A DNA stretch of 64,000 bases from Mustelus asterias. Lineage: Eukaryota. Positions 3,447-62,868 of the stretch are shown piece after piece; the stretch's first letter is position 1; the number at the start of each line of letters is the position of its first letter. The notes beneath the pieces are model-generated. The model was not told the origin of the DNA. It worked only from the letters and a program-made list of their open reading frames with translations, and made no database searches. The DNA lies in NCBI RefSeq assembly GCF_964213995.1, contig NC_135809.1:9672001-9736000 (forward strand), given 5' to 3'. Both the position numbers and the translations under genes were made by a program.

Positions 3447-4487
3447 TTGTTGAACTGTCCCTATATTCCTTGCTCTCCAGAAATCTAGATGTCTCAGTTT
3501 TGAATAAACTTAATTTCTGAACTTCTACAGGCAATTCACACACACTCAATTTTACAAACTTCAATGCGTTGCAAACCAGATCTAGTTATACTTCTTCAAG
3601 TAGACCTTCCTGGTTTAAGCGCACGTACTGACATCTCTGCAACACCGCATTGCCACAGGAACAGAGATCTTCCAGCACAGAAGGAGGCCATTCAGCCCAT
3701 TGTGCCTGAAGAAATGGCAGCACCCTCGGAAGAGAGTAGGCCATTCCATCCTTAAGGTCTACCTTTCCCCATTTAATTATATTGTGGCAGATGTGTACTC
3801 CATCTAAAATTACTTACCTTAGCTCAAAATGCCCACCCGTCCCTTTAATACCATTATTCAGTAGAATATATTTTTGTCTTAGCTTTGATAATTTCAGTTT
3901 ACCCTCAGCATCCACAGGTTTTCCAGGAGAGCATTCTGAATTTATGCTACCAATTCCATGAAAATGTGCTTCTGATTTGCCTGTTTCCTGGTGAAAGATA
4001 AAAATGGGTCTCCTTCAGAAGCCTCACAAACAGCTCTTGGGAGCTTGCAACCAACATCAAAATATTAGTCTGACAGGCACTTGAACACCACCGGATCCAC
4101 CATATGAACTCACCCCAAGAGAATTGTGATTGCTTTGTTCATCTGCAAATGTTTTTGAGCTAGGATCATTAAAAAAAAATCTCTGGGAGAAACATTTTTC
4201 ATATAAAAGTCTTGCAAAAATGCAGAGTGCCCGCTTCCGGATGCTACTTAATATTTGTAACAGCACCTTCAGTTTTTTAAAATGTTTTTTTATTAGTGTC
4301 ACAAGTAGGCTCAGTTTAACACTGCAATGAAGTTACTGTGAAAATCCCCTAGCCGCCGCATTCCGGCACCTGTTTGGGTACACTGAGGGGGAATTTAGCA
4401 TGGCCAATGCACCTAACCAGCACGTCTTTCAGATTCAGTAAGAAATCTCACAACATCAGGTTAAAGTCCAACAGGTTTATTTGGTAG

Positions 4488-4522
4488 CGCGAGCTTTCGG
4501 AGCGTTGCCCCTTCATCAGGTG
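4488..4522 (-). ncRNA. minimal type I hammerhead ribozyme motif (PLE terminal repeat)
   Basis: CAC-CUGAUGA-A-GGGGC-AAC-GCUCC-GAAA-GC-UC-GCG; one stem I mismatch. Confidence 0.65.
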
Positions 4523-5268
4523 ATTGGAGAGTTGGGTTCACAAACAGGGCATATATAGGCACAGACTCAATTGCAAGATAATGGTTGGAATGCGAGTCTT
4601 AACAGGTAATCAAGTCTTTACAGGTGCAGACAATGCGAGTGGAGAAAGGGTTAAGCACAGGTTAAAGATGTGTGAATTGCCTCAAACCCGAATAGTTAGT
4701 AAGATTTTGCAAGCCCAGACAAGTCGTGGGGGTTACAGATAGTGTGACATGAACCCAAGATCCCGGTTGAGGTCTTCCTCATGTGTGCGGAACTTGGCTA
4801 TCAGTCTCTGCTCAGCGACTCTGCGCTGTCGTGTGTCTTGAAGGCTGCCTTGGAGAACACTTACCCGAAGATCAGAGGCTGAATGCCCTTGGCTGCTGAA
4901 GTGATCCCCAACAGGAAGGGACAACTCCTTCCTGGTGATCGTCAAGCAGTGTCCATTCATCCGTTGTCGTAGCATCTGCATGGTCTCGTCGATGTACCAT
5001 GCCTCGGGACACCCTTTCCTGCAGCGTATCAGGTAGACAATGTTGGCCGAGTCTCAAGAGTATGTACCATGTACCTGGTGGATGGTGTTCTCACGTGAGA
5101 TGATGGCATCCGTGTCCACAACTCTTTAACCTGTGCTTAACCCTTTTTCCATTCACATTGTCTGCACCTGTAAAGACTCGATTACCTGTCAAGACTTGCA
5201 TTCCAACCATTATCTTGTAATTGAGTCTGTGTCTATATATGCCCTATTTGTGAACCCAACTCTCCACT

Positions 5269-5303
5269 CACCTGATGAAGGGGCAGCGCTCCGAAAGCTC
5301 ATG
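5269..5303 (+). ncRNA. minimal type I hammerhead ribozyme motif
   Basis: CAC-CUGAUGA-A-GGGGC-AGC-GCUCC-GAAA-GC-UC-AUG; first stem I pair mismatched. Confidence 0.6.
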
Positions 5304-5882
5304 CTACCAAATAAACCTGTTGGACTTTAACCTGGTGTTGTGAGACTTCTTACTGTGCTTACCCCAATCCAACGCCGGCATCTCCACATCATGTCTTTCA
5401 GATTGTGGGAGAAAACCAGAGCACCCGGAGCAAACCCACGCCAGACACAGGGAGAACATGCAGTCTCCGCACAGATAATGACCCAAGTCGGGAATTGAAC
5501 TCAGGTCCTTGGTGCTGTGAGGCAGCAGTGCTAACTGCAGTGTCACCATGCCACCCCATAACTAAAATATAGTTGCTGCCTCTTTGAAGGAACTAGCCAA
5601 TTCAGTCCCAAACCTTTTCCCCATGGCCTCGCAAATTAGTTGTCTTTATAGGGGTGTGCAGTTTCCTTCGAGACGTTCCAATGGATTCTGATACTACTAG
5701 GTTTGTTTCTTCTGCCAGCTCCCCACACCTATCCTCCTGCATATGTCCCTCCTCACACCTGTCCCTCCTTCACTTATTCCATCCTCACATCTCCCCCTCA
5801 CCTATCCCTCCCTCCCCTGACCCTCCCTCACCAGTCCTTCCCTCCTTCCCTCCCTGCCCCTTCCCTCCATCTGATATCCACT

Positions 5883-17576: not shown

Positions 17577-17837
<261 letters not shown>

Positions 17838-33081: not shown

Positions 33082-33182
33082 GTGAGCGAATGGATCGGGC
33101 CTAGCCCCCCCCCCAGCCGCCAAATCCTTCTCTCCGATCCCTGACTATAACCTTCTCTAACCCCCTTTGTGTTAACCTTCAG

Positions 33183-33304
33183 GTCCAACAACTCCGGCCC
33201 GGCACCACCTCTCCAGCCGGCCCAGGTTCAGGCCCAGCCACCGGTAGGAGGCCATCCCGTCAACGCGGAGGAGGCCGTAGCCTCGCCGCCAGAGGCCGGT
33301 CAGG
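33183..33304 (+). CDS. TDG: TDG coding exon 2
   Basis: AG/GT bounded, Pro/Gln/Ala-rich, phases fit the flanking exons. Confidence 0.78.
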
Positions 33305-33762
33305 GTAAGAGAGGAGTCTCCAGGCCTGACCAGAAGCGTTTATAATCGTGAAACACACCGCACAACAACAATAAACTCCGCCTGGACCATGTTTTTAAAT
33401 GAAGCATAAAATCATCGCCCTTTCTGCCACTTGTTGGCTGCCCTCGGTGTTGGGGTTGGGGGGGAGGGTGGAAGTGACCTGGTTCCGATAACAACAAGTA
33501 ACTGGAGCTCTTCTGCTCAGATTGACGACACCTTTTGGTAGAGAATGACACGTCCCAAGGCTCTTCGCACAAGATAATAATTACTCTCAGCCACGTAGGG
33601 AGACTTTAAGTCAGCTGAGCAAAAACAAAACTTGGGCAACGAGTTAGATCTTAAAGAAGGAAAGCGAGAGAGCAACTGAAGGCAGGGGCCATTAATAAAT
33701 GGGGAGAGAGGGAGGGGGGTAAATTAGGGATGTTCAAGAGGCCAGAAATTGTAGGAGTGAAT

Positions 33763-34621: not shown

Positions 34622-34627
34622 ATGATA

Positions 34628-35610: not shown

Positions 35611-38464
35611 GTCAATGAACACAGAGGTAATAGGTAAACAGGACTTGTTTTTATCACAAGCAGAATTTTGGATGATCTCAAGCTTGTGTCAGGCAGAAAG
35701 TGGGAAGTTGGCCAGGAGTTTGTCGGTGTAGTCAATCCTAGAGATAAGACACAAAAACGGGTTTTGGCAGCAGGTGAACTGAGGTGAATAGTTGACGTTA
35801 CAAAAGTGGAAACAAAAGGTCTCTGTGATGGGGTTCAGACATGACATCAAGGTTACAAACCGTCTAACCTGATAGTTGCCTAGAAGAATGGCATTAGTGG
35901 CTAATGTTTGTGGTACAGACTGTTGACAATGGCTTTGGTCTTCCTGGTATTTAATTAGAAGAAATTCCAGCTCATCCAATGCGAAGACCATAAGATGTAG
36001 GAGCAGGAGTAGGCCATTCAGCTTGCTGACTCTGCTTCACCATTCAATGAGATTATGATTGATCTGATGTGATAATCCTCAATTCCACTTTCCTGCCTTG
36101 TCCCCATAACCCTTGATTCCCTTGCTGATTAAAGTCTTGTCTATGCTAAATGCTGGACAAGCAATTTGACATTTGAGAGATGGTGGACGGGTGATGAGAG
36201 GTGGTGGTAAGGTAAAGCAGTCTAGTCAGCATATGTATGGCAAGTGGTGGTGTGATTTTGCATGATGTAATTGAGCGGCAGCATGTAAATGAGATATAGG
36301 ATGGGGTCCAGGATAGACTTTTGGGAACACCATAGATAATGGTACAATAGCAGGAAGAAAAGTGGTGCCCTGGCGAAAGACTAGATACATGTGATTAAAA
36401 ACTGAGCAAACGTAGTCTCAGCTAGCTCACTGTTTTGGATTAGGACGATTTAGTCAACCTTCAAAAGGCTGCAAGCATGTTGAGAGGACAACGAGGACGG
36501 TTCACTATTGTCAAAGTCACACAGGATGTTCTAGGAGAGATGGGCAGGCAATATCACATTCAATGGCCTGGGAGAGAAGAGGGGTGTTGGAGATGGAGTG
36601 TCTGCAGGGCTGGAGGAGTCAAGGTTGGTTTTCTGGTGAGATGGGTTAATGACAGCAATTTTGAAGGATGGGGGACAGTACCTAAGGAGAAAAAACTCAG
36701 AAAATGTTCAGCTCAAATGAGAGTCAGGGAGGGAAATTGGCTCACTGGCAGTTTCATGAGAATAGGTTCAAGGGGGCAAAACTAGGTCTCATGAATGAGA
36801 TGAGCTCAGAGGGCATGAGGGAAGAAACGAGATAGGTTTGAGGTTGGGCCAGGGGGAGCATAGAAAATAGGAGGAGGCCATTCGGCCCTTCAAGCCTGCT
36901 CTGCCATTCATTATGATCATGGCTGATCATCCAACTCAATAGCCTATCATGCCTTTCCACCACCACCGTCCCCCGTTCCCCTCCCCCTTCGCCTCAAGTG
37001 CTACATCTAATTACTTCTTGAAGATATTCAATGTTTTGGCCTCAACTACTTTTTGTGGTAGCAAATTCCAAAGCCTGACCACTCTCTGGGTGAAGAAATT
37101 TCTCCTCATCTCTATCTTAAATGGTCTACCCCATATTCTCAGATTGTGACCCTTGGTTCTAGATGCCCCCAGCATTAGGAATGGCCAATAGATGCATTGC
37201 CCACACCCTGAAAGTAATTTAAGTTGTGAGATGACACTTAATTCAGCTTTGTATACTTTGTTAATTTTGTTAACTTCCTCACAATCAATTCAATGTCCGC
37301 TTTCAGTGCTTGTATTTGCACATGTAAATACTGCTTGTTTAGAGCTGACCATAAGATTTCAGGGTGTGAGCCCCAAAACGAACGGAATCAACAGCATTAG
37401 ATTTCTTAATTTTTGGCATTTTATTATGTCACTAACAATTACTAACATTGCTTCATATTTTGACACGTTTTAAATGTTAAAATTGCAGTTTGTGCAACTA
37501 TAATAAATAAACTATAATATATAAATCTTGGGCAGAGGGAAAGTTATAATACAATAACAAGTAATTTTTGGGAGGGTGTAACAATGTTCTGTAAGATAGA
37601 AAAATTATATTACTAACGTGTCAGTTCTCTATCTTTTCAACCTCTACTGTATTAATAATTTCCTCTTATATCAATTATCTAATAACCTGTTCCCTGAATG
37701 TTGCCGTTGTGTTTAGCCTGCACCACTGTAAAGATCAGAAACTATTGAATTCAATTAATTCCTTTCCTTATCCCTCCCCCTCCATTTGTGACCTCTGTTT
37801 ACTTCTATTGCACAAATTGCGGAACAATACGTGTTAACTCCTGGGTTATTCAGCGGAATAATTCACCTCTGGAGAGTTAATTCTCTTCCCTGATGCTGTG
37901 CACACAACTTTGAAGTGATAACAGTGTATCATCACGCAAATCTTTTTTTTTTGCATGGTGTTTCACAGACATAGACTTACAACATTGCATTTTTAATCCT
38001 GCTGCTAGCAGCAATTCTGACTCTGGAACTAGTATGAACAAAACACCTCCTAACAATATGGAAATTTGCCTCAAGATTTTCTTTCTACTAGATGTAATCA
38101 TAAATAGATTATTTGCTGGTTCCACCATTTTGTCCCTGCTGTGAATGGGCAGAGAGTTCTCAACCAGCCTCATAAACTGTTAATGTAATTTGTGACTCAC
38201 TGACATATAGTGGACTTTGTTCGAAGAAGACTTGTGGCCAGAAACTTTAGAATTACAATTGATTTTCATTTTGTAAATAAATCTTTTTATCAAAATGTAT
38301 CTTCATTGCCAAAATGTAATGTCTATTTATATGCTTTTAAAAGTATATAACTTTGCTGAAGTATCATTCAAGGTCTATGTCTGCTTATAAGACTGGTCGA
38401 AGTTGGTGACTTAAGTGAGCTATGGATGAAATATTCATTGATGCAGTGGTGATTGATTATCAAG

Positions 38465-39968
38465 TCACAAGAAATAGGAGTAGGTAATTTGGCCCATCAA
38501 ACCTGCTCAGTCTTTCAGTAGAATCATAGAATCCCTACAGTGGAGATGGACGCCATTCAGTCCATCAAGTCTGCACCGACTCTCCAAAAGAGCATCTTAG
38601 CAATGCTAACCACTGCTATTGTGCCATCCGTGATTGTGATAGATATGAATGTGGCTTTAATTCTGCCTTTGACTTCCTTGTAGATCAAAAATTGTCTGAC
38701 TCAACCTTGAATATATTCACAGAACCAATCTCCACTGTTGTTTGGTAGAAAATTCCAAAGTTTAATCACCCTCTGACAGAAGTTTCTCCCCATCCCTCTT
38801 AAATGGAAGACCCTTTATTTTATATAACTTTTCCCCCTAGATCTTTATTTCATCCATGGGGAAACGTCCTCAGTGCTTAGCCTGTCAAGTCTCCTCAGAA
38901 TCTTGTGTGTTTCAATAAGATTGCGTTTCATTCTTCGAAACTCCAATGAGTAAATGCCCAACCTGTTCAACCTTTCTTAAGAGAACCCCTTCATCCAAGT
39001 AATCAACCTAGTGAATGTTCTCTGAACTGCTTCCAATTATATTGCTTAAGAGAGCAAAATTGTACACAGTACTCTAGGTGTGGTCTGACCAATGCCCTGT
39101 ACAATTGTAGCAAGACCTCCCTACTTTATACTCCATTGCCCTTGAAATAAAGGTCAATATTCCATTTGCCTTCCTAACTATTTGCAATGCCTGCAGGCTG
39201 ACTTTTTGTGATTTCTGTACATGGACACCAACATTCTTCAGTGGTATTTTGCAATTTCTCTCCATTTAAATATAACTCTCCTTTTCAATTTGTCCTACCA
39301 AAGTGGGCAACCTGATATTTTCACACACACAACTCCAAATTTTTGCCCACTCACTTAACCTACATTTATACCTTTGGAGACTTTTCTTTCGTCCTGATGA
39401 CTTGCTTTCCCTACCTATGTTTGTATTATCAGCAGATATGGCTACAACACAGTTGTCCCTTCATTAACATAAATTGTAAATAGTTGAGACTCCAGCTCTG
39501 ATCCCTATGTCACTCCATTTGTTACAATTTGCCAACTTGAAAATGATCCATTTTTCCTGACTTTCTGTTTCCTGTTAATTAGCCAATATTCTATCCATGT
39601 TAATATATTGTCCCCAACTTCTTGAGGTCTTACCTTGTGCAGTAACTTTTTATATGGAACCTTACCAAATGCCATTTGGAAATCTACATATACTTCTTTA
39701 GTTGGTTTCCCTTTATTCTCCCTGTTTGTTGCATCTCCAAAATACTCTAATAAATTGGTCAAACACCATTTCCCTTTCACAAACCATGTTGACTCTGATT
39801 ATATTATGATTTTCTAAGTGTCCTGCTTTACCTCCTTTTACCAATGGCAGCTGTTAGGATAATTGGCCTGTAGTTTCCTGCTTTCTGTCTCCCTCTTTTC
39901 TTGAATAGAGGTGTTAGTTTTATGGTTTTCCAATTCATTGGGACTTTTCCAGAATCTAGGGAACTTTA
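38465..39968 (-). mobile_element. CR1-type LINE fragment
   Basis: CLTNLLEYF...VYVDFQMAFGKVPYKKLL, decayed RT. Confidence 0.8.
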
Positions 39969-40025
39969 AACTGCACACAAAAACTACAAGCTGTTTCAAG
40001 ATTTGGTGTTACTGTGTTCTTTCAG

Positions 40026-40258
40026 CAGCTCCAAAACGTAAAAGAGGAAGACCTCCAGGGTCGCAGAAAAATAAGTCTGAGGGAGCAAGCACGAAACGAG
40101 GCAAAACAGAAGGGAAATCAGGGGGGAAGCAAGAAAAAATCACCAATGCTTTTAAAGTTACGAAAAGAAAAATTGATCGATTCAATGGAACAACTGAAGC
40201 TGAGCTTTTAACAAAAACCTTACCGGATATATTGACCTATGGTTTAGACATTGTGATT
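40026..40258 (+). CDS. TDG: TDG coding exon 3
   Basis: KRKRGRPP...QEKITNAFKVTKRKIDRFNG...TKTLPDIL...LDIVI. Confidence 0.94.
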
Positions 40259-40659
40259 GTGAGTTAATGTTTCCCTTAATTTTTATGAGTTTGATTTAAT
40301 CCAATTGCAATCAGCAGAAGATTATTAAATATTATGGTCAAGTCTCCAAAGAAAACGATTCAAGATTTTTAGTGTGAAAGCAACATGATCAGAAACCAAA
40401 ATCTGTCGGGTATTTGAATGTGAACGGTGCAGAGATATGTGTTCTTGTGTGCTTCAGCAAGGTAATTGAGCTTTAGGTGGCTTCTGTTATCTCCCTTTCA
40501 TGAGGGGTGTAAAGATTAAATATAAGCCAGGGCTATCCTGCAGTTACCCATGTAGTCAAGTGACTAATAGAGCATTCCACTTTTGAGTGTCTGTAGCCCG
40601 AGAGTGATCAAATTGTGAGAAGGCCTTAGAACTATGGCTACCAAAAGCAAAGAGTAGCA

Positions 40660-41285
40660 CAAGTCTTTGAATGTGATAGGACTAGTGGAAAAAAACTGGT
40701 AAAGGGGCATTTGGGGTTCATGGTTTTATATATATATATAGAGAGAGGCATTGACAAAATCAGGGAAGTTGTACTAATTCTTTATAAAACATAGTTTAGT
40801 CCAAGATGGAGTATTGTGGCTAATGCTGGATGCTGTTCTTTAGAAGGTATGGTAAGGCCTTAGAGAGAGTGCAGAGGAGATTTACTGAATTGCACTAAGT
40901 ATCAACAAAACTACAATTATGTGTAGAAACTGGCGGTAGTCTCCTTAATGCCGAGAAGGTTATGGGGAGATTTGAAGAGATGTTGAAAGCCATATGAAAT
41001 GTTGAGAACATAGGTGAGGGAAAACTGTTTCCAGTAGCAAATGGTTTGATAACCATGATGAACACAGATTTAAGACAATTGACAGAAAAACCAGAGGTGA
41101 TATGAAAAAACTTTTTTTTTACTTCTTGAAATCTGAAACACACTACCTGAAAGGTTGGCGGATGCAGAAAAAATAAATGATTTGTTGGGCAATGTGTGAA
41201 GAAACAAATTGGATAGCTCTTTCAAAAAGCTTGCATTGGCACATTGGACTGAATGTTCTCATTCTGTACTGTATAATTCTATGAA
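40660..41285 (+). mobile_element. old CR1-type LINE 3' fragment
   Basis: Decayed CR1 3' sequence ending TAATTCTATGA. Confidence 0.6.
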
Positions 41286-41796
41286 ATATCTGAAGAGCAT
41301 CACTTTTCTGAATATTATAATTGGAAAAGTATGTTTTTCTTATTTGCAATCTGAATTACAATTCTAAGCTGACAAAAGTGATTTGTCATGCTAATATAAT
41401 GTAGGGAGCCAATCTGTTAACAAGACATATTGTATTGTGGTTGAAAGGTGGGATTAGTTTGGTCACTATTGCAGGGTGAATAACTGTTAGTGTGGGAAAA
41501 ATAGCTAATGTTTTTACTTGGGTATATTTACCTGACATTTTAGGACTTGTTGCTGCAGATTCCTTGATTGCCACTTAGAGGTGCTGCTGATCTTTTGAAA
41601 ATCCATGTTCAGTATGTGTTTTTGAATCCTAAAGTCTAACCGAATTGCTGATGTAATATATTTCCTGTTGACTAAAATATCTAAGAAGCTTTAGGAAGCC
41701 ATGCTATCTAAACAGTAGTTCTTCTGTTGAGGCTACCAGCTAGGATTCATTCCTCTTGCTGTGAAATAGCAAGACAGACACAGCTTAATATGTTTA

Positions 41797-42097
41797 ATAG
41801 CACTGCTGTCTCACAGCGCCAGGGACCCGGGTTCAATTCCAGCCTTGGGTGACTGTCTGTGTGGAGTTTGCACGTTCTCCCTATGTCTGCTTGAGTTTAC
41901 CCTGGGTGCTCTGTTTTCCTCCTAGAATCCAAGGATGTGCAGGTTAGTTAGATTGACCATGCTAAATTGTTCCTTAGTGTCATGGGGTTAGCAGGGTAAA
42001 CATGTGGGGTTAAGGGAATAGGGCCTGGGTGGGATTGTTGTTAGTGCAGGCTCACTGGGCTGAATGGCGTCCTGCACTGCAGTGATTCTATGATTCT
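41797..42097 (+). mobile_element. HE1-like V-SINE, tail type 1
   Basis: Family match. Confidence 0.87.
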
Positions 42098-42931
42098 ACT
42101 CATAGAATCATAGAGTTCTACAACACAAAAAAAGGCCCTTTGGCCCATCCTGTCTGCACTAACCATCAAGCACCTATCTGTTCTAATCCCATTTTCCATC
42201 ACTTGATCTGCAGCCTTATACTATGAAGAAATTAGGTTTATCTATGTAGGTTTCTGATCTAAACTTCCCAGGTGGAGAGGGAAAGCTTTATTGTTTTATT
42301 AGTAAATATACTTGGAACAAGATTATTTCCTATATTGTGCTACTACTGAATCCAAACTATTCTGCTCTGTTGGTGCATAAAATAAAGCTATTTTGAAGTG
42401 GAGATTTCAGCCAAATCTCGGCACTTATATTCTGCCATCAGAGAGAGTATTCCTGACATTTTTGTTAGTGTCTTGAATAATATATCACATCTGGAAAGTT
42501 ATTCAAGTCTTTTAGGCCAAAATTCCATAGAAAGTCTTTGAATATGGTTGCATTTTTCATTAAACAAAGTGATGTGTCCCCGGCGCTCAATATATTGCAA
42601 AATAGAAACGTATGCTTGGTTTCCTGCTTCCCACTGCTGGAAATACTTAATGAAGGCAGAATTGGGCTCAATAGTGATGCTCTTCTCCTGGTGAAATATA
42701 TTGCAAATACTCCGTATCAAGGCTGACCTTTTGAGTTATTGGACATTTCTGCAGGGATGCCTAGCACCAGTGTAACTGCAATATCTTTGACTGTGTTTTA
42801 GAGAAGATGCCCGTCATCAAATTCAGCAGGAAGGCACAATTACTAAATGTTTTGGCTTGATGTATATTTTTTCATAGCTGACTGGTTGTAATTTCCTTTC
42901 CAGTCTAAATTGAATCTGCTATTTGTTTTAG

Positions 42932-43001
42932 ATTGGAATTAACCCAGGGTTGATGGCAGCATACAAAGGACATCATTACCCAGGACCAGGAAATCATTTT
43001 T
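42932..43001 (+). CDS. TDG: TDG coding exon 4 (catalytic GINPG)
   Basis: [23 protein letters not shown]. Confidence 0.97.
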
Positions 43002-43140
43002 GTAAGTTCTTGTATGTACAGAAATTCTGTTGAGTGTTCTTAAATCTTATAGATCTTTTGAAGTTTGTTCGGGTACATATTTTCACTGTCTCGTTCTTGT
43101 TGTATATTTAAACTTTCACACATGCTTCTTTCCTCTTTAG

Positions 43141-43276
43141 GGAAATGCTTGTTTTTGTCTGGTCTTATTGATAAGCCTTTAAATCATGCGGATGATACTT
43201 CTTTACCAGAGAAGTATGGAATAGGTTTCACAAACATGGTGGAGAGGACTACTCCGGGAAGCAAGGACCTCAAAAG
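43141..43276 (+). CDS. TDG: TDG coding exon 5
   Basis: WKCLFLSGL...[19 protein letters not shown]. Confidence 0.96.
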
Positions 43277-43359
43277 GTGATTAATGAATGTAAATCAAAA
43301 TTCCAATTTTTGGTTTTGTTTAGAAAGAAAATGTAATTTAAAAATTCTTTGCATTTCAG

Positions 43360-43442
43360 TAAAGAGATTCGCGAAGGAGGCAAAATACTTCTGCAAAAAC
43401 TGCAGAAATTTAAGCCACGGATTGCTGTTTTTAATGGAAAAT
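43360..43442 (+). CDS. TDG: TDG coding exon 6
   Basis: [27 protein letters not shown]. Confidence 0.96.
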
Positions 43443-44189
43443 GTGAGTAGAAATATGGAAAATCTAAAATCAAACTTTTCACCATCTTAATGTCATAGTT
43501 TAATGTCTCAAATGATTTTTGTGTTGCTGCAAATTGGGGTATTAGTGCTGGGAAATAATACCCAGTATTCATATCAAACATTGCCAGATCATGTGTAACA
43601 AATTAGAGTAAAGCTTCCTCTGTCTCAACCCAAGAGAACACTGCGTCATTTCACCCCATCAGTCTGGACATAATTTAAGACAAGATCTCAGAGGGGAAAG
43701 ACCTCTCTACTACCCAGATCCCCCCAAAAATATGAATTTGCACTTGGAGTGCTATGTTTAACTTTGGCCTCCTTACTTAAGGAGTGATATATTTGCACTG
43801 AGAAGATTCATTAGGCTGGTTCCTGGAATAAAGGGGTTGTCCTATGAAATGAGGGGTCTCACATTTAAGACAGATGAGGGTGATGTTTTTCTGAGGATCA
43901 TACATGTTTGGAATTCTCTCCCTCAGTGAGCAGTGGAGGCTGGGTCATTGAATATATCCATAGCTGAGTTAGACAGATTTATGATTGACAAGGAAGTCTG
44001 TATTATGAGGGGCAGGCAGGAAAATGGTTATTATCACAGTACAATCAGACATGATCTTACTGACTGGAGAAACGCCCTAGTGGCAACATGGCTTACTGCT
44101 GTTCTATTTATTATGTTCTTATCCTTGAATGCAAATTATTTAATAATATGATCTAGAAATAGTTGCTTAGTAATATAGAACTTGAGTAC

Positions 44190-44595
44190 TTTTGAAAAGA
44201 GACATGCTGCTGAAGCTTTTTATCTTGCACTCATCAGAACATAATACCAAATTTGAAAGCGATCATCAATTTGTACTCTTGTGAGAAAAGGGTGCTGATT
44301 GATTGGCGAGTTGACTTTGGTTGAGTTATTGCTGTGGAGAATGCATTAGGGAACTATTGTTCCTCCAAATTTTTGTTTAATTGAAAAGAAAGCTCAATGT
44401 CTGGGCATGTTTGTTTTTGCTTGCAGAGGACAGGTTCCTGCATATGAATACACGTAGCTTTGACCCTTGCTAAATGAGCCACATTGGGAGCCCTAATAAT
44501 GATCTTAAATTGGCTGTTAATATAATTCTTAGCACATTCAGGATTATTCAGCAAGTACTGCCCATTCATGGAATCATATCTAACGTTAGACATTG
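44190..44595 (-). mobile_element. second Penelope-like family, 3' fragment with a degenerate hammerhead-like motif
   Basis: GQYLLNNPECAKNY...FKII.RA...KATCIHMQEPVLCKQK resembles a GIY-YIG C-terminus; downstream CUGAUGA at 44237-44231. Confidence 0.65.
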
Positions 44596-44928
44596 GGCTG
44601 TAACTTCTGAGCTCCACAGCACTGTAACTAAGCAGGATCTAGTAGATGGCTGAGGTAGGGATTGCATGGGAAGTTCAGAATTTCAGTGGGCAACAGCTCT
44701 GCACTGGGAATCATTCAAAAATGCAATTTAAACACAAACTTTGGATGGTTCTGATTATGTCACATAATAGTTACCCAGAAAAGGTTAGAATTAAATCCAC
44801 TTCTAGCTCCACACCGCAATAACCAATAGGAAGGAGATTGCATTGGAAAATGATTGATGCTTTCAAAGCTGATTAGGGGAATCTGCCCTGGTGAATTTGA
44901 ATTTGATTTTGCTTAACTTTTGTTGCAG

Positions 44929-45023
44929 GCATCTATGAGATTTTTAGCAAAGAAGTATTTGGAGTTAAGGTCAAGAAATTGGAGTTTGGGCAGCAGCCGC
45001 ACAAGATCCCTGACGGAGAAACA
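44929..45023 (+). CDS. TDG: TDG coding exon 7
   Basis: [29 protein letters not shown]. Confidence 0.96.
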
Positions 45024-45968
45024 GTAAGCACTGGGTTCGCTTATTTACACACACTCAGCTCCTGTTGGAAAGCTCTTCAACTGTCTTCTCAAAAATCTAT
45101 TCCAATCTGTTGGTTTTTAACCATCCTTTATAATCTTTATTAGGTTAGGTGGAGAAGTGTTTCTAAAAGTTAGCATTTGTTTTACCAGTAATTCATCTAG
45201 ATTCACATTTCAATACATGACCAATCTTCCGCGTTCAAATAATTTATTCCCTTCATTGAAACTTGAGTTCACCTGGAATCGGTCTTAAGTTTGCTGAAGA
45301 AAAGGCTCCCAAGTGTCTCACAGCCCAGTGATCTGTTTTGAGATCACCTTTCTGCCTTTGGATGGAGCAGTTTCCAATATGGTGACCCATAAACCTATTC
45401 AAGCTGGTATAGGGTTAATATTAAATATTGATTCAATTCTCTTCTGGAATTCCAGATTGCTTATTTGGCCTCTATCCCAAAACTTTGCTCTTCAATTCCT
45501 TTTGCCCACAACTCGCCAATTACCCCCCCTTCGCCTCCCTCAACTCAAACAAAACCTTTTAACATCTGCCTGCGCAGTTCTATCTTCCACCCGAGGGGTT
45601 TTTCACAGTAAGTTCATTGCAGTGTTAATGTAAGCCTACTTGTGACACTAATAGATAAACTTAAATTTAGTCACTATGAAACACAGAACAAGTTTGGCGT
45701 TCTTCTCACGTTTGACCTAATTTTTCCCGACTCTTTATTGAGTCGACTCTTCCAATTGCCTTAAGATCTGTACTCTCTGGCTTTCATTTGCCTTGAATTG
45801 TCCAACCTATATTTTTGTATCTTAATCTCATCTGTCCTTGCCACTTGCTGTTAGTGCCACCTTCAAACATGCTATTCGCAGCAACCCTGCTTCATTTCTT
45901 TTTCACTTACTTTCCTCTGGTGAGGTTTCCTGTAAAGCTAAATACATAATTATAACTTTATTTTCAAG

Positions 45969-46140
45969 GTGGTTTATGTCATGCCTTCTTCCAGTGCAAG
46001 ATGTGCACAGTTTCCTCGGGCCCAGGACAAGGTACATTATTACATCAAGCTAAAGGAATTGCGAAATCATTTGAAGGGCATAAGAACTGCTACAGAGGTC
46101 ACTGAAGTAGAATACTCATTTGACTTGCAAAAAGCTCAAG
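45969..46140 (+). CDS. TDG: TDG coding exon 8
   Basis: [26 protein letters not shown]...[10 protein letters not shown] (SUMO-interacting motif). Confidence 0.96.
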
Positions 46141-48068
46141 GTAAATAGCCTGCAGTTACAATTCAAGCATCTCCCTTTTCTTAAAGGCTTAGTCTTAAAT
46201 CTTCCCTCATCCACCAACTTTCTGAAATTTTGTTGCTGGGAGTAACTTGCTTGGATTGATAGTATTTCCATAGATTGCACAGCAATTAATATTTATTTAC
46301 AGCTGAATAGAAATGTGAAGCACAAAACTTAGTACAGTTGATTTGTGTATTGTGTAACCATAAATAAATTAAACTGCTGTAATGTCATTTGTAAGGACTT
46401 TGGGGAAATAGCTCAGCTTTGAGAGTGGAAAGAGCTGCGAGGGGAGGATTTCTCACCTCCCCATGGCGTGTTTCTCGCGGTGGGAGGCAGCATGCCATTT
46501 GCTGGCAGCAGGATGCTCGCGTGCTGCCGCTGTCAACAGGATTTTTTCATTCAGAGGGTGGTGAATCTTTGGAAGTATCTACCACACAGGGCTGTGGAAG
46601 CTCAATCATTGAGCAAGTTCAAGACAGAAGTCAGTAGGTTTCTGGAAGCCAGTGACATCAAAGGATCTAGGGACGGTGCAGGAAAATGGCTTTGATCAGT
46701 TGTGATCAAATTGAATGATGGAGCAGGGTTGATGGGCTGAATGGCCTGCTCATTGTTCCAAATAAATCAACTACTTCAGATAACTGGAAACCTTGTTTGC
46801 ATTGATGTAACCATCAGCTATTTAAATCCATGAGCTGAGTGAATGGGCTGAATCTTCCGAGCAGTTGGATTGCCACTCCGCTGGTATTTTTTTATACTTT
46901 AATATGGAGCTTTGCATTTCTGGCCCAGAATTCTGAACTGGGCTTCTTGAGAAATGCAGAATGTTCCTAGGAGTCCTCTTTCAGTATACAGGATCGTGAG
47001 GGAAAGTCATATTCCAGTAGAGAGTTTAAGCCACTTGAGAAGCTATGGAGAGAAGGTAAGTGAGTGAGGGGGTAGGATCACGGGTGAGAGAGTAGGATGT
47101 CTGGTGATGGGGAGTAGGGTGGCAGGTTGGTGAGTGAGAAGTTAGGTGGGTGATCAGGAGGGTAGATGAATCGGGGTGGTGAAGTGTGAGCGGTCCAGTG
47201 GGGAGTCAGGGTGTCTGTTGAACCTGGGAGTTTGAACTGGTTTTAATCCTTCTAACTTTTCCTGGGTAGCTATTCTGTTAAGCGAGTCGGAACTGTCCAA
47301 AGTCTCTAGTTTTAACTTAGAATTTCAGAGGGTTCCAGATGCAGTGGAATAGCCCATTGGAAGTCCAAACTTCCTGGGGAATTCCCAGATAATCAGGGCG
47401 TTGGGACTTCTGATTGGTTCGCCCAGTGAATCTTTGGGAGTAATTCTGGGGTACAATCATCTGGGGATTGGAAGTTCTGGGCCATTTAGAGACCTTTGGC
47501 TGCTATTGAACTATCATAAGCTCAAAACTATACACTTTCAAAAAACATCCCAATTCTACTCACTTTTTCCCTTCAGTACCCAAAGGGCCTTAATTAGGTA
47601 ACGCTAATTCTGATATTTTCCTAGCTGAAAAAAATTTCCTAGCTGAAATCTATACAAGTGGTTGTTTCACTGCTGGATAGGAAGACCTGCTGTCAAACAA
47701 AAATATTAATCAATTACTCAACAAGGAAGAGCGCATCCAGTTAAAATACAATGCACTGAGGGTTAAAATTCAATTACTGTAACTTTTATTTGCTGTACGC
47801 ATTTTAGCTTTATACCCAGTTTATGTAGAAATGAAGGTTAATACCCAATTAGTATCAGTGTTCGCTATAGCATTGGAATGTTGGATTCCAGTTAATTAGA
47901 CACAGGCTGAATCCGAGGCTTTATCATCACAATTGATGAGTTCTTGATTTGTCCACAATTTGTAGTAGTACAATTAAAGCACCTCTGAATTCATAGTCTG
48001 TTTTTATTATTGTTTTAAATAAAAATCATTTTTTAACGAGCTTGATGATGTTCTGATTCTCCCTCTAG

Positions 48069-48197
48069 CGGAAGCAAAGAAAATGGCGATTAAAGAGGAG
48101 AAATATGACCCTGGTTACGAAGCTGCTTTTGGTGGCTCATATATGGAAAAATCCGATGAAAGCAATGGGCAGTGCCATTTTGCTACAACTGAACCAG
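48069..48197 (+). CDS. TDG: TDG coding exon 9
   Basis: AKKMAIKEEKYDPGYEAAFGG (SUMO consensus IKEE). Confidence 0.94.
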
Positions 48198-49807
48198 GTA
48201 AATGTACAATTGATTTCTACAGTGAGCAAATGGCTTGGGATTTTACAGCTTATGTTGATGTGATCTTTTTACTAAGTGCCAAACGGTCTAGTGACCTGCA
48301 GGGAGCTACCATATGTGGATTTTTATCAGTCATATAACTTACAATATCAAAGCAAATGCTGTTAATTTGTTACTAGTATAATTCGAGAGTCAATGAAGGA
48401 AGCGTGCTACCTTCTTCACAGCATCACAATTATTTGCACTTTTAATTAAATAATTATTCTTGAAGAAAGGATACAATCTTTGTTGTGATTCCTAAACCAC
48501 ACTGTGTATACAAACTATGATTCTGGCAGATCTCTGTATAAATAGCCATATAGCTCCCTCCCTGGAATCCATTTGTCTCAGTATGAAATAGTTGAAGAAG
48601 GGTATGAGCAAGGCCCGAATAACCTATCCCTGCTCGTATTTTCTATGGTTGAAAGGAGTAATCCTTGTGAAGTACAAGTTATTTAGAGATTGAAATTGGA
48701 AATTACCAGTTGTCCTTTTGAAAACTCTGCTATTACTACATGTAAGTTGCTACTGTTGGACTAACCTATGTTTTGGAAGTGTTCTAGCCTACTTAGTTTT
48801 TTTAAATGAGTTGGTTTACAACTGCATGCAACAACTTGTATTATTTGGGGATAGTAGGGGACAGAATTCAGTAACCCCAATATAAACAATGTATAAAGGA
48901 TTACAATGCACCATTAAATGCATTATGCAATATAATAATCTGAAGTTGGGTGTGGCATATATTTCACACTATGGCTTGCTTTGTTTAAAATGTCAGGCAA
49001 GTTTTCATCAGATGGAAGTGCAGCGACTAGAGATTGTTGACCAACAAGCAACTTCAGCTTGTCGAAAAGAGTAGAACCAGAGAATGCACCCTGTATTTGA
49101 AGGAGGGTTGAATTCAAAACAAATCTGCAAAAATTATATGTTAGTGAGTGAGCGGTCAGTCTACAGAGCAGATCCTTAGTGAGACTGGCTGATTTAATTC
49201 AGAGTAGTTGGATTTCTTTTGGCAAATAATATTTGAGTTACAGTATATGAATAATTTGAGACATAATGTGGTAAGTACGGAATGGTTGTGGTTGGTTGGG
49301 GGGGTTGCGGTGGGAATGTGATTTTCGACCAATGGCTCCCAAAGTCTCCGCCACAGGGATTTTCCTTGTGTCATTTCTGTATTTGTTGTAGACTAATAAA
49401 TTGCTGACTAATCGTAGTAATTATTCTCTAACAGTGTTGTACTCTGGAGAAAAGCAGAAGTCATGTTAGAGGATCCATGGTCTCAGTTCATTGAGCGATT
49501 CCTATGATGATCTTGTGTTGCAAATGTAGTGCAAAACTTAATGAATTCCATAGTGACTCAAGATGATTTCCTGGTGTTTGTCTTGAAAGAAGATAGGTTC
49601 AAAATGTTTGTACGTTGAAGTTGCAAAAGTTAGTAACATTACAATATTAAATGCTTTCATCTTTGAATTTATATTTTAAACTTCAGTTCAGCATTTTTTG
49701 ATTGCAGTCACATTTACCTAAGCATAGTATTTTGATTATATTTTTGGACCATTTTCAGATTTACTTTACAAAATAGCACCGTCACTTTGATTAAATTTGT
49801 TTTATAG

Positions 49808-49950
49808 CGGCAGCCACCAACTCTGAATTCAACATGGGCTCAAAGTTTTGCCAAGTTCCTGATGGTCAGTGGATGACCCAGTCGTTCGCAGATCAGATTC
49901 CTTCAATCAACAACTATTGCACACAGTCTGAAGAAGGAAATAGTACATAA
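49808..49950 (+). CDS. TDG: TDG last coding exon
   Basis: GQWMTQSFADQIPS...GNST-stop. Confidence 0.92.
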
Positions 49951-50856
49951 TAAATTGACAGGTTTGCAGAATTTCATGTTACTGCAGTTTTAATGCAGTC
50001 TTACAAAGTACTGTACCTCAGTTTTTGAACTGAAGAGGTTTTGGGATAATATTTCTTTTTACCCTAATGTTTTAAGTCTAGAATTGTGCGTAAACGTAAT
50101 GATGTAGTAAAGGTTAGAAAGCTGAATTCTTAAACTTTTAGAATTAAACTTTGCCCAAAATATTTATAGCTGGAAAGAGAAATAGTTTTAAATGAACATT
50201 TCTGGGGTTTTTTTTAAGTGGACAGGTGCTCATTTGATTCCTGTAATATAGTTGGGGGTTTCTTGCGAGTACAGATTCTCTTCTGCCCAAGTGTTTAAAT
50301 TGTAAGGCTGTTAGGTCATTCAGAAATTCTTTCTGTTACTGCTAGCAATAGATTGGGTGCAGTGTAGCCTTTATTGATCTTGGTCAAAGTAGTGGGAGTT
50401 CAGAAACAATCATCGTGTAACATTTCTAACAGAGTTGAAACGATGCTGTTTAAGGTCTTGCTTATTTGAAGCTATTTTAACATTTGCATTTTTCAGGATA
50501 TGTTGAAGTTCTAACAATAGCTGTTTCGATTTCAGACCTGTTCAGCAAACTACTTTAATTTTAAATTTATTAGACCAAAGGGTGCATGTTTTTTTTTAAA
50601 AATCGTATAATGAATACGGGTCCAGGTGTCCATTTGTTTATGCAAATTCAACACTAGATCAGAGCAGTTTCGATTCATTACTTTAAACCCGTTTTGAAAT
50701 GTTGGTGAGGGTGGCAATATGTCGCTTCCCCATAGAAAACTAAAACTAAATTAAGGAAGATGAACTTATTTTTTCCATTGACTGTACTTTTTCACTATGT
50801 ATTTAAGAATAAGGGTGCTACACTGTTGTAAAAACAATAAGCATAAATAATCATGT

Positions 50857-51060
50857 GGAGTTGCCGGCGTTGGACTGGGGTAAGCACAGTAAGTAGTCTC
50901 ACAACACCAGGTTAAAGTCCAACAGGTTTATTTGGTATTGCGAGCTTTCGGAGCATTGCCCCTTCTTCACTCACCTGATGAAGGGGCAACGCTCCGAAAG
51001 CTCATGTTACTAAATAAACCTGTTGGACTTTAACCGGGTGTTGTGAGACTTCTTACTGTC
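50857..51060. mobile_element. palindromic Penelope-derived mini-element in the TDG 3' UTR
   Basis: Inverted arms; direct repeat CATAAATAATCATGT at 50842-50856 and 51061-51075. Confidence 0.88.
50972..51006 (+). ncRNA. minimal hammerhead ribozyme motif, sense to TDG mRNA
   Basis: CAC-CUGAUGA-A-GGGGC-AAC-GCUCC-GAAA-GC-UC-AUG. Confidence 0.6.
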
Positions 51061-51189
51061 CATAAATAATCATGTTTTACAATTGACACTTGTAAGTCTA
51101 TTCTTCACTCAAAGTTGCTTTATTTAAATTCTGATTCATATTTTAGCAGTATGTTCCCCATTTGTATGGTTACTTTAACCATATTGCTT

Positions 51190-51195
51190 AATAAA
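51190..51195 (+). terminator. candidate TDG polyadenylation signal
   Basis: AATAAA with a downstream T-rich tract. Confidence 0.5.
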
Positions 51196-51615
51196 AATTA
51201 CAATTCTTTTATCTTTTTGCGCAAAGCAATTTTGAATTATCAGAAGTAGACCATTTGAAAAGTTGTCAATGGTGCACAAGAAAAGCCAGAGGATAGGTTC
51301 TTGGGCAAATATTTTAATTATGTTTAAAAATCTGAGTCAGCAATAATACAAGCCTTCAGCATTTGTGGTTTTAATGTTTTTGCATTCACTGTATAAGATT
51401 CAATTGAAAATTGTCTGGATATTAAATGGGGCATTCACAGTTCTGGCTCTCGTGCATTTCAAAGCACTTATCCCTTCGGGCTGAATTTGTGCACTTTTCT
51501 CTTCAAGCTAAATTTGTGCAACAATTTTCTTTCAGCCTGATTCAAATTTGAATACAGAGAATTAAATTCTTTCTGTGAGCCCTTGTGCTTAAATCTAGAG
51601 AAATGTAGCTCACTC

Positions 51616-52116
51616 GCCCAGATTTTAACCCCCACACTTGAGAATTGAGGCAGTTTATTTGGCCAATCCTTGTCAATTTAACAGGTGTTCTTTTGACTGC
51701 TAGCATGGTCCTCACACCAGACAGATCAGGGACTAATTCAAATCAGAATCTGGTTATTTAGCTCTGGAAGCTACTTTTGGTGCCCAGGACTGACCCTGTC
51801 AGGAGCACCAGCTGCAAAGACGTATTGGGGCAAAAGATACCATTTTATTTTTACAAGTTTCCTCATTGGCCAGGGCAATGGGAGTGAGTCTCCAAAGGAA
51901 ACTTTGGGCTTCCTTCTGATTGCCTACTCAATCCCAATCCCCTCCTCTTACCCCTCCACTACTTGTCTAACTGACCGGGGATCATTCCGGTGGGTTGCTG
52001 GCCCTGGCTCCTGTAAGCGTGAAGTCATTGATGCTGGATTTGTGCAGAAATCTGGTCCAAAATGGCCTAGGCTTCAAGCCTGCCAGCCCCATACTCTCCC
52101 CGCTTAAAATCCAGGC
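51616..52116. mobile_element. putative non-autonomous DNA transposon (MITE-like)
   Basis: Terminal inverted repeats GCCCAGATTTTAA / TTAAAATCCAGGC. Confidence 0.45.
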
Positions 52117-53914
52117 TACCGAGTAAAAGTTGTTACAAATGGGACTATGTAAATGCCTTAAAGGTTCATTAAGGAAGCTATTGTAATTGACCTGCATGAG
52201 TGTTTTCAACAAAGCATTTGTAAGATTCTGTTTTTAGTAACTTAAAGCTGTTGTACAGGGCGTTTTCAGGTAACACACACACCACATGTTCTAGTACGTT
52301 AAATGTGCCTGTGGGAATATATACAAGTAAATGTACTCTGACTTGAAGTGAATGGGCAGCTACTGGAAACTTTTAAAAATGATACTGTTTACAACTTGTA
52401 CATTTGGTGCTCAATCCTCTTGCAAGAGAGGGATGGTTCTGAAAGCTGGCAAAAAAAAAACAATAAAAATCACAATGAATACTTTTTACTTTTTTTGTTT
52501 TGTATTTTACATTGTTCCATGCCCACTTGGGTGAATCTTGAAAACACTTCAGGTAAGTCTGATCTTGCAAAGTTGGTGTGTTTCTGCACATCTCCAAGCT
52601 GGATAGGACAGTTCATACTTTCTGCGCAGGGATTGATTTTATGCGCTGGTTTTCCACACACAAACTGCATGCTCACCCAGTTGAATAAAGGAACTTTGTT
52701 TTGTCACACAAATTAGATCATTTTCTATATTGTTTACTTAGGTTTTACACAACCGGAGGGCAGAAGGTAAATGGCCCTCGGATAACAATTCTAATTTTGC
52801 ATACAAGACCCGCATGGTTTCTTTGGAGTTTGGAAGTGATTGGGAATATCAAGCTTAATATTTTTTTAAAATGGGTTGCAGTGCATTAGAGGGATGCCTT
52901 ATTTTCCTTGTATTGTGTTTTTGGTTGTCCTTCATTTTTGATCTGTTTAATATTTTCACCTTCCAAACACATGACCTCAACCACCTAGCACAACATAGGG
53001 CAACAGATGCATAGAAACATCACTAATGTAATTTCCCCTCCAAGCCCCACAATTCCTGAATTGGAAACTAATGTATCGCCATTCCTTCACTATCGCTGGA
53101 TCAAAATCCTGGAACTCCCTCCGTAACAGCACCATCTATGTGTACCTACACCACATGGGCTGCAAGGGTTCAAGAAAGTGGCTCACTGCCACCTCCTGAA
53201 GGATTATTAGGGGTGGGCACTAAATGCTGGCCTATGAAATAATTTATTTAGTTTGCCATATATTTGTTCCAACAGATCTAAAGCCTTTTGTGAATCCATT
53301 GCTGGTTGCTTTGTGTACTTTTCTCACTAATTCAGCCATATTGCAGTTAGATTATTTATGCTGCAACATTTGGAGTAGGCACATCTGGCTTTTTAGGAAC
53401 TCGCTTTGAAAGGAAAAAGCTGCTACTTTCACATTTGCAGTTTGAAAACAAGATCTCCCACTTCTTTTGGAATTTCATTTCATTTTAAGACTAAGATTCA
53501 TCTTAATCTTAAACTAGCAGAGATTTCTTTAAAATCTTCTTAGTATCCTCTTACCATGGGTATCATGAGCAAGGCTGCATGTGTTGCCCATTGCTACTTT
53601 TCCTGAACTCTGTAAAGACATTTTCAGGATAACGAGTCAGCCATGTACTGGATTGAACTTTCACATGTGGCAGATTCCCTTCCCTGAAAGACACTTAATA
53701 AATTGGCTTTTAATGACAAAAGCAGGAACTGCTTTAATGGTTCTTGTTCGACACAAGCCCACAAATTATTGAATTCTGTTCCACAATTTACCGTAGTCGA
53801 GATCTGAATTCTCGACCTCCACTTTACTACACTGCTACACTCAGAAACCTTGATGAGTTCCTGCAGTGCATCTAATAGATGCTGCCACTGTGGAGTGTGA
53901 ATATTTGTGGAACT

Positions 53915-56405: not shown

Positions 56406-56578
56406 TTAATTGTTGGGTCGCACCAATCGAAACCGTCCTGTTGGATCAGGAAGATACCATTTTTCCCAGAGATCCACATGCGCAGTGGGATAATCCCAAG
56501 GTTTAAACCTTCCGTTCCAATGTAGTAATTTAGCTTCAGAAAGGAAGTGTTCCGAATATCTGGCATCAGGACTCCAGC
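56406..56578 (-). CDS. GLT8D2: glycosyltransferase 8 domain-containing 2, last exon
   Basis: WSPDARYSEHFLSEAKLLHWNGRFKPWD...DPTGRF-stop; AG acceptor. Confidence 0.93.
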
Positions 56579-56769
56579 CTACAGAAACACAATTGGAAAA
56601 ACGCACTAGAGCTATTCCGTGGCTATAAACTTAAAGGAGAAAGACAAGATGTCTTACATTAACTACACAGAGCACTCCTTAAGAGTTCTTCCTGGCACTA
56701 AGTACATTCTATCCTTCAACCCAAATAGAATACCTTTTTAATATCAAACTTTTAAGCCTACTTAAAAGT

Positions 56770-59794: not shown

Positions 59795-59906
59795 AATTAG
59801 GAATGGGCAATAAACATTAACCTAACCAGCGACACCCACATTCCGTGAAAAAATGAAAAGCCCTCCAATTCTGGCACATCCGAAGTTCCTTTGCTCCAAT
59901 ATTGGT

Positions 59907-60111
59907 GATGTGGAGATGCCGGCGTTGAACTGAGGTGGGCACACAGTAAGAAGTCTCACAACACCAGGTTAAAGTCCAACAGGTTTATTTGGTCTGACGA
60001 GCTTTTGGAGCGTTGCTCCTTCATCAGGTGACTCAGCTGATGAAGGAGCAGTGCTCCAAAAGCTCGTCATACCAAATAAAGCTGTTGGACTTTAACCTGG
60101 TGTTGTGGGAC
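59907..60111. mobile_element. palindromic Penelope-derived mini-element with two mutated hammerhead motifs
   Basis: TSD CTCCAATATTGGT at 59894-59906 and 60112-60124; inverted arms. Confidence 0.88.
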
Positions 60112-60534
60112 CTCCAATATTGGTACCCATAGCTTCAGCTGCCTTCGATTCTAAGCTATAGAATTTCCCACTTAAATCTCGCTTGAGTTTCTACCTCCTC
60201 CTTTAAGATGCATCTTAAAACCTACATAATCCTTTACTTGTCTGAATATCTCCATATCTGACTCAGTGTCAAATTCTGCCTGCTAAGACCCCTGTGAAGT
60301 GTATTGGGATGTTACACTATGTTAAAAGACACAAATTATTGCCATATGAAATATTGTAAGCATTGTTAACAAAACAGAAAATATATAAAAGGTAAATAGA
60401 CAGGACACACCCTGCCTGATATTTTTAAAGACATATTTAAACTATTCTGGATTAAATCAATAGTTGCAAGATTCAGAATTTTCAGATGTTTGGAATGAGA
60501 GCTGAGGGGCACAATTACCCTGGTAAGTTGTGAA

Positions 60535-61850: not shown

Positions 61851-62701
61851 TTTGGAAACATATCTGGATGGCTCAGAAGTGCAGCAGACCAAACCAAACT
61901 ATAAAAGATCTCAGATGTTGCCTGCAAAACCTAACGCATCCCTAACAGACAAAACAAGTATTTTAGTGTGCAGCTACTTGAAAAATGATGAAAGGAGGTG
62001 CAGAGGAAACTTGAAAAACTGTCAGAAAGGTGCTTACGAGAAATATCCAACAGCCACACTAGAACATTTCAACTCGGCATTTCTTTTTCTAAAGTGCAAC
62101 AACTCCCTGCATGTCTATGTTTGCGCTGGAGAGAGAAAACGCTAAGAAAATGAACCGTCTCCAGCTAAGTGGCTAGATTATAATGAGGGGGCATTGCTGA
62201 ACCCTGGGCACATGAAAGGGATCCCAGCTTTGCGTCAAGGTCTTTTGCTGAGGCTTTGATCACAGGTCTATTTTGTTAAGGGTCAGGCTTACACTCCAGG
62301 TCAGGCTACGTAATCTATATACCGACCAATACATTTAAAGTATTGCATCTGTGCATTCCATCAGCAGTTTCCCCATGGCAGCTCCATCTCCAGTGGATAA
62401 TGGGAAATGTCTATGTAAAACCTGCACGCCCCTTTCCCCAGGGGCGCTACAATGTGGCCGATAGTGCATCGTGGCAGGACCTGTTTGCAGAGGAGCTTCC
62501 ATTGGAATAGGTGCGAAAAGCAGGGCAGAATCCGTGACTTGAAATTCAGGATTCAATTGATCCAATTGACCCCAAGCCCTGAAATTTACTAGTCCTCAGA
62601 AAACAGGGCTGACGTTGCTCGTAAGGGCCTTTTGTGAAGGAAAATATCAAGACTTTGTGTTGTACAGAAGTATAAACACACGAGAACAGCGCACGACTTA
62701 C

Positions 62702-62868
62702 TCTACGTTGGTGGCCAGCCATTTTTCCAATTGCTTCGTGATCCGCTGCCGTTTCCATTCTGTAACATTTGCGACAAACACGCCCACGTTAAAGGAACAT
62801 GTCGTGGGGTTTATCCCCAGCCCTCTGACTGTCGCCTTCCGGTAGTCCAAATGTCCCATGTATGTGGT
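62702..62868 (-). CDS. GLT8D2: GLT8D2 internal exon (absent from the ORF track)
   Basis: TTYMGHLDYRKATVRGLGINPTTCSFNVGVFVANVTEWKRQRITKQLEKW; AG/GT. Confidence 0.93.

Follow-up and report, generated by a model that had tools for sequence, protein, structure and literature searches.

The likely 3' UTR of the TDG gene of Mustelus asterias very probably carries a short, protein-less, mirror-image insertion of a Penelope-like element (PLE) that is a neutral passenger there, with a hammerhead ribozyme motif that is predicted to be inactive. Within the window (the whole 64,000-nucleotide stretch that we analyzed, on contig NC_135809.1), an insert at 50857-51060 is flanked by an exact 15-nt direct repeat (50842-50856 and 51061-51075), interpreted as a target-site duplication (TSD). 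An initial annotation of this DNA had described a ~200-bp insertion with a 15-bp flanking repeat and inverted arms ~900 nt past the TDG stop, and each of these features was recovered: the insert begins 892 nt 3' of the stop codon, and its inverted arms (50881-50969 and 50976-51064) are 89 nt long, 88% complementary and separated by a 6-nt loop. What the annotation overlooked is that, judged from its sequence, the cassette is a copy of a Penelope-like repeat that is very abundant, composed of two 3' ends of that element's pseudo-LTR (pLTR) placed head to head, with a tail on one of them. The parts of the insert are given below, with pLTR positions numbered on the copy at 5117-5392 of the window.

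50842..50856, no strand: left target-site duplication (direct-repeat search)
50853..50969, minus strand: left arm, pLTR 3' end with 36-nt tail (pLTR positions 157-276)
50964..51059, plus strand: right arm, pLTR without tail (pLTR positions 145-240)
51061..51075, no strand: right target-site duplication (direct-repeat search)

The left arm is antisense and the right arm sense. BLAST matched 50850-50969 to the pLTR at 5273-5392 and the right arm to the pLTR at 5261-5356, the latter with 95% identity. The outer ends of the two arms correspond to pLTR 276 and pLTR 240, both of which are family boundaries, and the 36 nt between them constitute the one-sided tail. The final 4 nt of the left duplication are identical to the end of the element's tail, a microhomology; the tail end is visible in an intact element, L043.

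The TDG gene itself is represented by nine exon blocks, all on the plus strand, from 33023 to 49947, followed by the stop at 49948-49950; one exon is 96% identical to shark TDG (best match). The features that bear on the position of the insert are as follows.

39905-40267, plus strand: TDG exon (exon mapping)
49808..49950, plus strand: TDG last exon, coding part (acceptor AG 49806-49807, stop 49948-49950)
49951..52712, plus strand: likely TDG 3' UTR (contig cover and ends; poly(A) signal candidates, 52462 and 52684)

To place the 3' UTR we relied on contigs from six small runs of five organisms (X16, X18, X1, X19, X2 and X4). These runs are not on record as RNA and were treated as mRNA-like because their contigs start at the exon acceptor, carry unaligned sequence upstream of it and leave the intron uncovered; X15-X18 share one study and may be the source of the assembly. 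The last-exon contigs start at 49806 in five of the six runs and at 49811 in the sixth, and the X16 contig has 1112 more letters upstream, a length close to that of the upstream exons when spliced. Contigs from upstream extend to 50881-50894 in X16, X18, X1 and X19; those from downstream start within the element, at 51012-51034, in the same four runs and in X4. With a junction counted as bridged only if 31 letters lay on both sides, the left junction was bridged only in X19 (38 letters) and the right in X1 (49) and X4 (31), the remaining junction contigs overlapping the element by 25-30 letters. Among the records no contig spans the whole insert, and a single continuous transcript is what we infer from the pieces.

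The downstream contigs of the six small runs end at 52460, 52460, 52473, 52470, 52426 and 52712, close to AATAAA sequences at 52462 and 52684, although such stops could also stem from an A-run at 52451-52460 and contigs cannot show RNA ends or strand; the large DNA-like runs continue to 52900. These stops hint weakly that the TDG 3' UTR extends some 1.4 kb beyond the insert and probably ends at about 52.46-52.71 kb, and not at 51013 or 51190. The initial annotation had placed the insert in the presumed UTR, upstream of an AATAAA at 51190. Location in the likely UTR stands, and 51190 probably does not mark the UTR's end, since the contigs reach 52426-52712. Nor does TDG mRNA appear to end before 50842, the case that the annotation had named against itself: spliced-looking contigs enter the insert and resume for ~1.4 kb beyond it. 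Contig depth is greater downstream than upstream of the insert in all six small runs, a contrast that we did not use because the parts of a gene cannot be ranked by such depth and because the same contrast would arise from 3' bias as well as from a stable 3' cleavage product.

Several neighboring features were observed in the same region. The AATAAA at 49949-49954 overlaps the TDG stop, such that an isoform nearly devoid of 3' UTR is conceivable. Downstream lies a convergent glycosyltransferase-8 gene, which we take to be GLT8D2 from vertebrate gene order (minus strand, exons 56409-56630 and 62701-62865, with a PF01501 match at 62701-62865). Its 3' UTR may approach or overlap that of TDG; of the six downstream contigs, all but one stop short of 52480, and none is connected to this gene. 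Upstream of TDG are HSP90B1/endoplasmin-like exons at 10946-18665 (fused annotation P0013).

The family to which the insert belongs is well represented nearby, with at least nine pLTR pieces within the 64-kb window. The copies found in addition to the insert, by sequence match where they are single pLTR pieces, and the intact parent found elsewhere in the genome are listed here.

4436-4674: pLTR copy
5117-5392: pLTR copy
5877-5986: pLTR copy
31966-32109: pLTR copy
32120-32253: pLTR copy
59906-60114: pLTR copy
4436..5392, plus strand: longer family member (inverted pLTR 4436-4674, endonuclease-coding 3' end, tailed pLTR 5117-5392)
59894..60124, no strand: second palindromic stub of the same anatomy, 9 kb away, with a 13-nt flanking repeat
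G000:C7:82392000-82397500: intact parent L043, with an uninterrupted 892-aa ORF

In the longer family member, an open stretch on the minus strand (4733-5053) corresponds to the 3' end of the reading frame between the two pLTR copies. The 106-aa endonuclease remnant at 4736-5053 gave nothing significant in Pfam and PDB sequence searches, and the GIY-YIG assignment therefore rests on the intact copy L043, whose ORF contains RVT_1 (E 6e-10) and, at its C-terminus, a GIY-YIG domain (E 6e-5), both above the Pfam cut-off. Between the reverse transcriptase (RT) and endonuclease (EN) domains of L043 is a CxxxxCxxC motif that fits the Neptune/Nematis linker, as described in the available portion of PMC8557442. 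L043 has direct pLTRs plus a tail-less inverted pLTR upstream, its pLTRs match both arms of the TDG insert (78-94%), and its tail ends at the ATG of the ORF; it belongs to a sister subfamily in which the hammerhead region is ~10 nt longer. In this family, a pLTR follows the end of the ORF, and direct and inverted pLTRs are both present, the standard organization of EN-bearing PLEs in PMC3846280 and PMC8557442. Together, RT plus GIY-YIG, the pLTR arrangement, the tail and the TSD identify the parent family, at the level of sequence features, as an EN+ Penelope-like element. First-look genome searches returned 1059 DNA candidates and 84,113 endonuclease candidates, figures that are not copy numbers; a search of a plasmid collection, uninformative here, gave no match. 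Around these copies, we also noted that the remnant at 4436-5392 sits inside a tRNA-derived SINE-like repeat, and that the pLTR piece at 5877-5986 lies near the start of a long C/T-rich tandem array (5760 to ~10000, units of ~15-27 nt).

The palindromic form is common in this family. Head-to-head pairs account for 16 of the 30 sequences that best match the right arm (TDG copy counted) and for 13 of 29 loci that were chosen by the tail end alone, a set from which the window's own pLTR (L055) was omitted. Among these 13, the partner arm stops at pLTR 233-246 in 10, and a flanking repeat of 8-14 nt is present in 8. The second stub in the window, at 59894-60124, is located within the downstream convergent gene. 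The tail occurs on either arm with an identical apex junction (L001 versus L020 and L026), which points to repeated independent formation and not to the copying of one master. Furthermore, the set chosen by the tail (L046-L075) includes 19 truncated arms that carry it, and 7 of these start at pLTR 147-154, ~30 nt below the TATATA at pLTR 118 (nominal P of 5e-6 for a uniform spread and 1e-3 for the last 60 positions, with the interval picked post hoc), which suggests run-off where transcription of the element begins. We considered truncation at the ribozyme cut for five arm ends at pLTR 186 (the cut falls after 184) and rejected it, as these are mostly alignment breaks at a 10-nt insertion of the sister subfamily; L065 alone among the 29 loci has an arm that starts exactly at the predicted cut.

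These ends may record the route by which the stub was inserted. In the available text of PMC11167929, a PLE protein cuts and extends both DNA strands in vitro, and reverse transcription has two internal start sites, one on either side of the tail. By analogous steps, the GIY-YIG endonuclease of the element would make a staggered cut, the top-strand DNA end would prime reverse transcription at pLTR 276, aided by the 4-nt microhomology between target and tail, and the bottom-strand end would prime it at pLTR 240. Each short cDNA would run off near the 5' end of the element RNA, ~30 nt below the TATA box, and the two cDNAs would join head to head at the apex. The published alternative, in the portion of PMC3846280 available, proposes instead that head-to-head junctions arise by self-priming on an antisense template. 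Under a two-primer origin, which we infer from the positions of the ends, both DNA ends are probably primed at the two starts that define the tail, a route that fits the recent in vitro work.

The sense hammerhead core (50975-51003), the mismatch of its first stem I pair and the AATAAA sequences at 51013 and 51190 that the initial annotation reported are all present in the sequence. The motif is laid out as follows.

50972..51006, plus strand: minimal type I hammerhead (comparison with the available text of PMC4209133)
50972-50974, plus strand: stem I, 5' strand
50975-50981, plus strand: CUGAUGA
50982, plus strand: unpaired A
50983-50995, plus strand: stem II
50996-50999, plus strand: GAAA, with a palindromic AGCU in place of stem III
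51003, plus strand: C51003 of UC, after which the cut is predicted; then A51004, mismatched with C50974
51013..51018, plus strand: AATAAA, part of the family pLTR (family comparison)

The sense arm keeps all conserved core nucleotides and has a 5-bp stem II. With the minimal hammerheads of PLEs (min-HHRs), as characterized in the available portion of PMC4209133, it shares type I topology, the CUGANGA / GAAA / UH core, an extra unpaired base before stem II, a G-C first stem II pair, a two-base palindromic stem III remnant (15.2-16.2) and a short stem I; it differs from them in that the first stem I pair, beside the cut, is broken (C50974-A51004), leaving two stem I pairs. Immediately after the cut, 12 of 14 copies that were not picked with the TDG query have G, where the TDG copy has A at a CpG. 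By this comparison the TDG hammerhead is a decayed copy of the PLE min-HHR motif. The minus strand has no ribozyme because the left arm lacks C3 and stem I.

Folding predictions indicate that the motif is buried. The hairpin has a predicted energy of -141 kcal/mol (z = -16.7; equalled by 0 of 200 shuffles) and contains an imperfect 77-bp stem whose longest uninterrupted run is 28 pairs. Within it, the pairs of stem II have probabilities of 1e-13 to 1e-19, and forcing the hammerhead fold carries a penalty of 42 kcal/mol (8.4 without the left arm), energies that take no account of proteins. In folds of growing prefixes the core is captured while it is being made. In a TDG transcript the antisense arm would be made first and would capture the ribozyme as it emerges, such that both the dimer-dependent hammerhead and the internal AAUAAA would be unavailable. 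The suggestion in the annotation that the hairpin masks the ribozyme agrees with these predictions, according to which the hammerhead is inactive and locked in the hairpin.

The annotation had also raised self-cleavage in the style of Clec2, in which the hammerhead would cut TDG mRNA at 51003/51004 and remove its poly(A) tail. The core nucleotides are complete, the motif lies in sense orientation after the stop and before the poly(A) signals, and the Clec2d ribozyme reduces reporter output by 80%, as given in the available text of PMC2950038. We nevertheless consider such cleavage extremely unlikely. A minimal type I motif without stem III needs a dimer, and the whole TDG gene contains one sense hammerhead core, with no same-sense partner. 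The pair beside the cut is broken, with only two stem I pairs left, and the folding penalty would have to be overcome. As far as the accessible sections of the cited papers go, single minimal PLE motifs were uncleaved in vitro and dimers cleaved at a low level (PMC4209133; dimer cleavage is summarized in PMC6765202), and an anole PLE hammerhead was reported to cut only when the element's protein was present (PMC11167929). A search of the window with Rfam at the gathering score gave 0 matches, hammerheads included, and among the papers listed by a literature search there was no report of a hammerhead in TDG mRNA. Clec2-like cleavage was therefore set aside in favor of a dimer-dependent PLE motif, and the case serves as a warning that hammerhead matches in shark mRNAs are usually transposon debris. 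Elsewhere in the window, at 31966-32265 on the minus strand just upstream of TDG exon 1, two pLTR ends lie in the same orientation, each followed by an identical 12-nt sequence, and this direct tandem could in principle form a minus-strand hammerhead dimer.

An alternative poly(A) site within the insert, also suggested by the annotation, fared no better. The AAUAAA at 51013 is a canonical hexamer with a GU-rich stretch 15-30 nt downstream, and low-level use would be possible if cleavage factors bound before the hairpin closed. All six of its bases, however, have a predicted unpaired probability of 0.00, with the pairing strand transcribed earlier. The hexamer is a family feature present in every copy, and in all six small runs contigs cover the UTR past the insert, ~1.4 kb further (to 52426-52712). 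That it yields a shorter TDG mRNA isoform is very unlikely.

The insert is shared by several species, as the presence/absence comparison named in the annotation now indicates. Junction contigs join the TDG UTR to the element in three other organisms (A, H and C) with UTRs that are ~2-5% divergent from that of Mustelus asterias, indicating that the insertion is older than those splits. The match of the upstream contig stops at 50852 in X2 (organism B) and X4 (organism C), with 42 and 53 letters unaligned, respectively; in X2 neither junction was bridged, and none of the joints listed skips the insert to give an empty site. Persistence across species is compatible with drift and also with use, the interior of the element not being visible in the relatives. 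Of 85 positions compared between the two arms, 10 differ, with 0 compensatory pairs. Against the majority base of the family columns, the arms diverge at 4 of 85 and 8 of 84 positions (5 and 7 with one query-biased column corrected), compared with a median family divergence of 5.9% (range 2.4-13.1%) for 50 copies. Assessed against paralogous copies only, the arms appear to decay at the ordinary rate of the family, and their age fits neutral decay.

Inverted Alu pairs in human UTRs offer an analogy for a role of the hairpin as double-stranded RNA, and an A-C mismatch is a preferred ADAR context. The stub might accordingly now work as a long dsRNA element in TDG mRNA, acting through ADAR, Staufen, retention or decay. 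The 77-bp imperfect stem with its 28 unbroken pairs, A-C mismatches at 51004:50941 and 50955:50990 and the junctions in three other organisms speak for such a role; the zero compensatory changes and ordinary decay speak against it, as does the abundance of such hairpins in the contigs of X16 and X18, and editing alone would not equal function. Family pieces were found on 1431 of 180,334 contigs in X16 and 859 of 117,621 in X18, which makes transcribed copies look commonplace. Within the element, A>G differences are also seen in large DNA-like runs and are no test of editing because other family copies supply them. On this evidence we regard a dsRNA function as unlikely. There is an even fainter chance, the slightest of any considered here, that several sharks have retained the stub as a Penelope sensor on TDG, a DNA-demethylation gene: a rise in Penelope RNA and protein would open the hairpin and supply a second hammerhead in trans, A-to-I editing at A51004-C50941 would restore the first stem I pair, and TDG mRNA would be cut, with less TDG made and methylation and silencing favored. 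As it stands, the insertion matters little, being one of very many Penelope stubs that is located by chance in a UTR. Because several species share it, comparison among them could readily test whether a long UTR hairpin made by a transposon is tolerated or used.

Our data place the TDG insert among several known systems, each of which is compared here as described in the portions of the cited sources that were available. The Clec2 hammerhead is type III, discontinuous, active as a monomer and conserved from rodents to platypus (PMC6155905, PMC2950038, PMC6765202). The TDG copy resembles it in having a sense-strand core between the stop codon and the poly(A) signal, with a 3' UTR location upstream of the poly(A) site that is indicated by contigs of runs not recorded as RNA. 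In contrast to the type III monomer, the TDG motif has type I topology, no stem III and a fold predicted to be inaccessible, and is of a dimer-dependent transposon type buried in its own antisense copy. Pairs of PLE motifs on opposite strands, 100-700 bp apart, have already been noted (PMC4209133), whereas the partner in TDG is adjacent, truncated before C3 and paired with the sense motif. Like non-LTR retrozymes, whose exon-overlapping copies are mostly in 3' UTRs (bioRxiv 10.64898/2026.07.22.740005), the TDG insert is protein-less, hammerhead-bearing and PLE-derived. Retrozymes, however, are head-to-tail tandem units with at least two same-sense ribozymes, and the TDG insert is a single head-to-head palindrome with one complete motif and no tandem hammerhead units, which rules it out as a retrozyme.

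The closest likeness is with the complex insertions of EN-bearing PLEs, which, in the available portions of PMC3846280 and PMC8557442, consist of an inverted 5'-truncated pLTR, a one-sided tail of 30-40 bp and a TSD. Both those insertions and the TDG insert have head-to-head inverted pLTR ends, a one-sided tail and a TSD, and both they and the parent of the TDG insert have an ORF with RT and, at the C-terminus, a GIY-YIG domain. The TDG insert differs from those described in being only ~200 bp long with zero ORF sequence, in belonging to a shark family and in its position within a host gene's last exon. The stub in the likely TDG 3' UTR is a truncated PLE insertion, ordinary and of a kind that has already been described.
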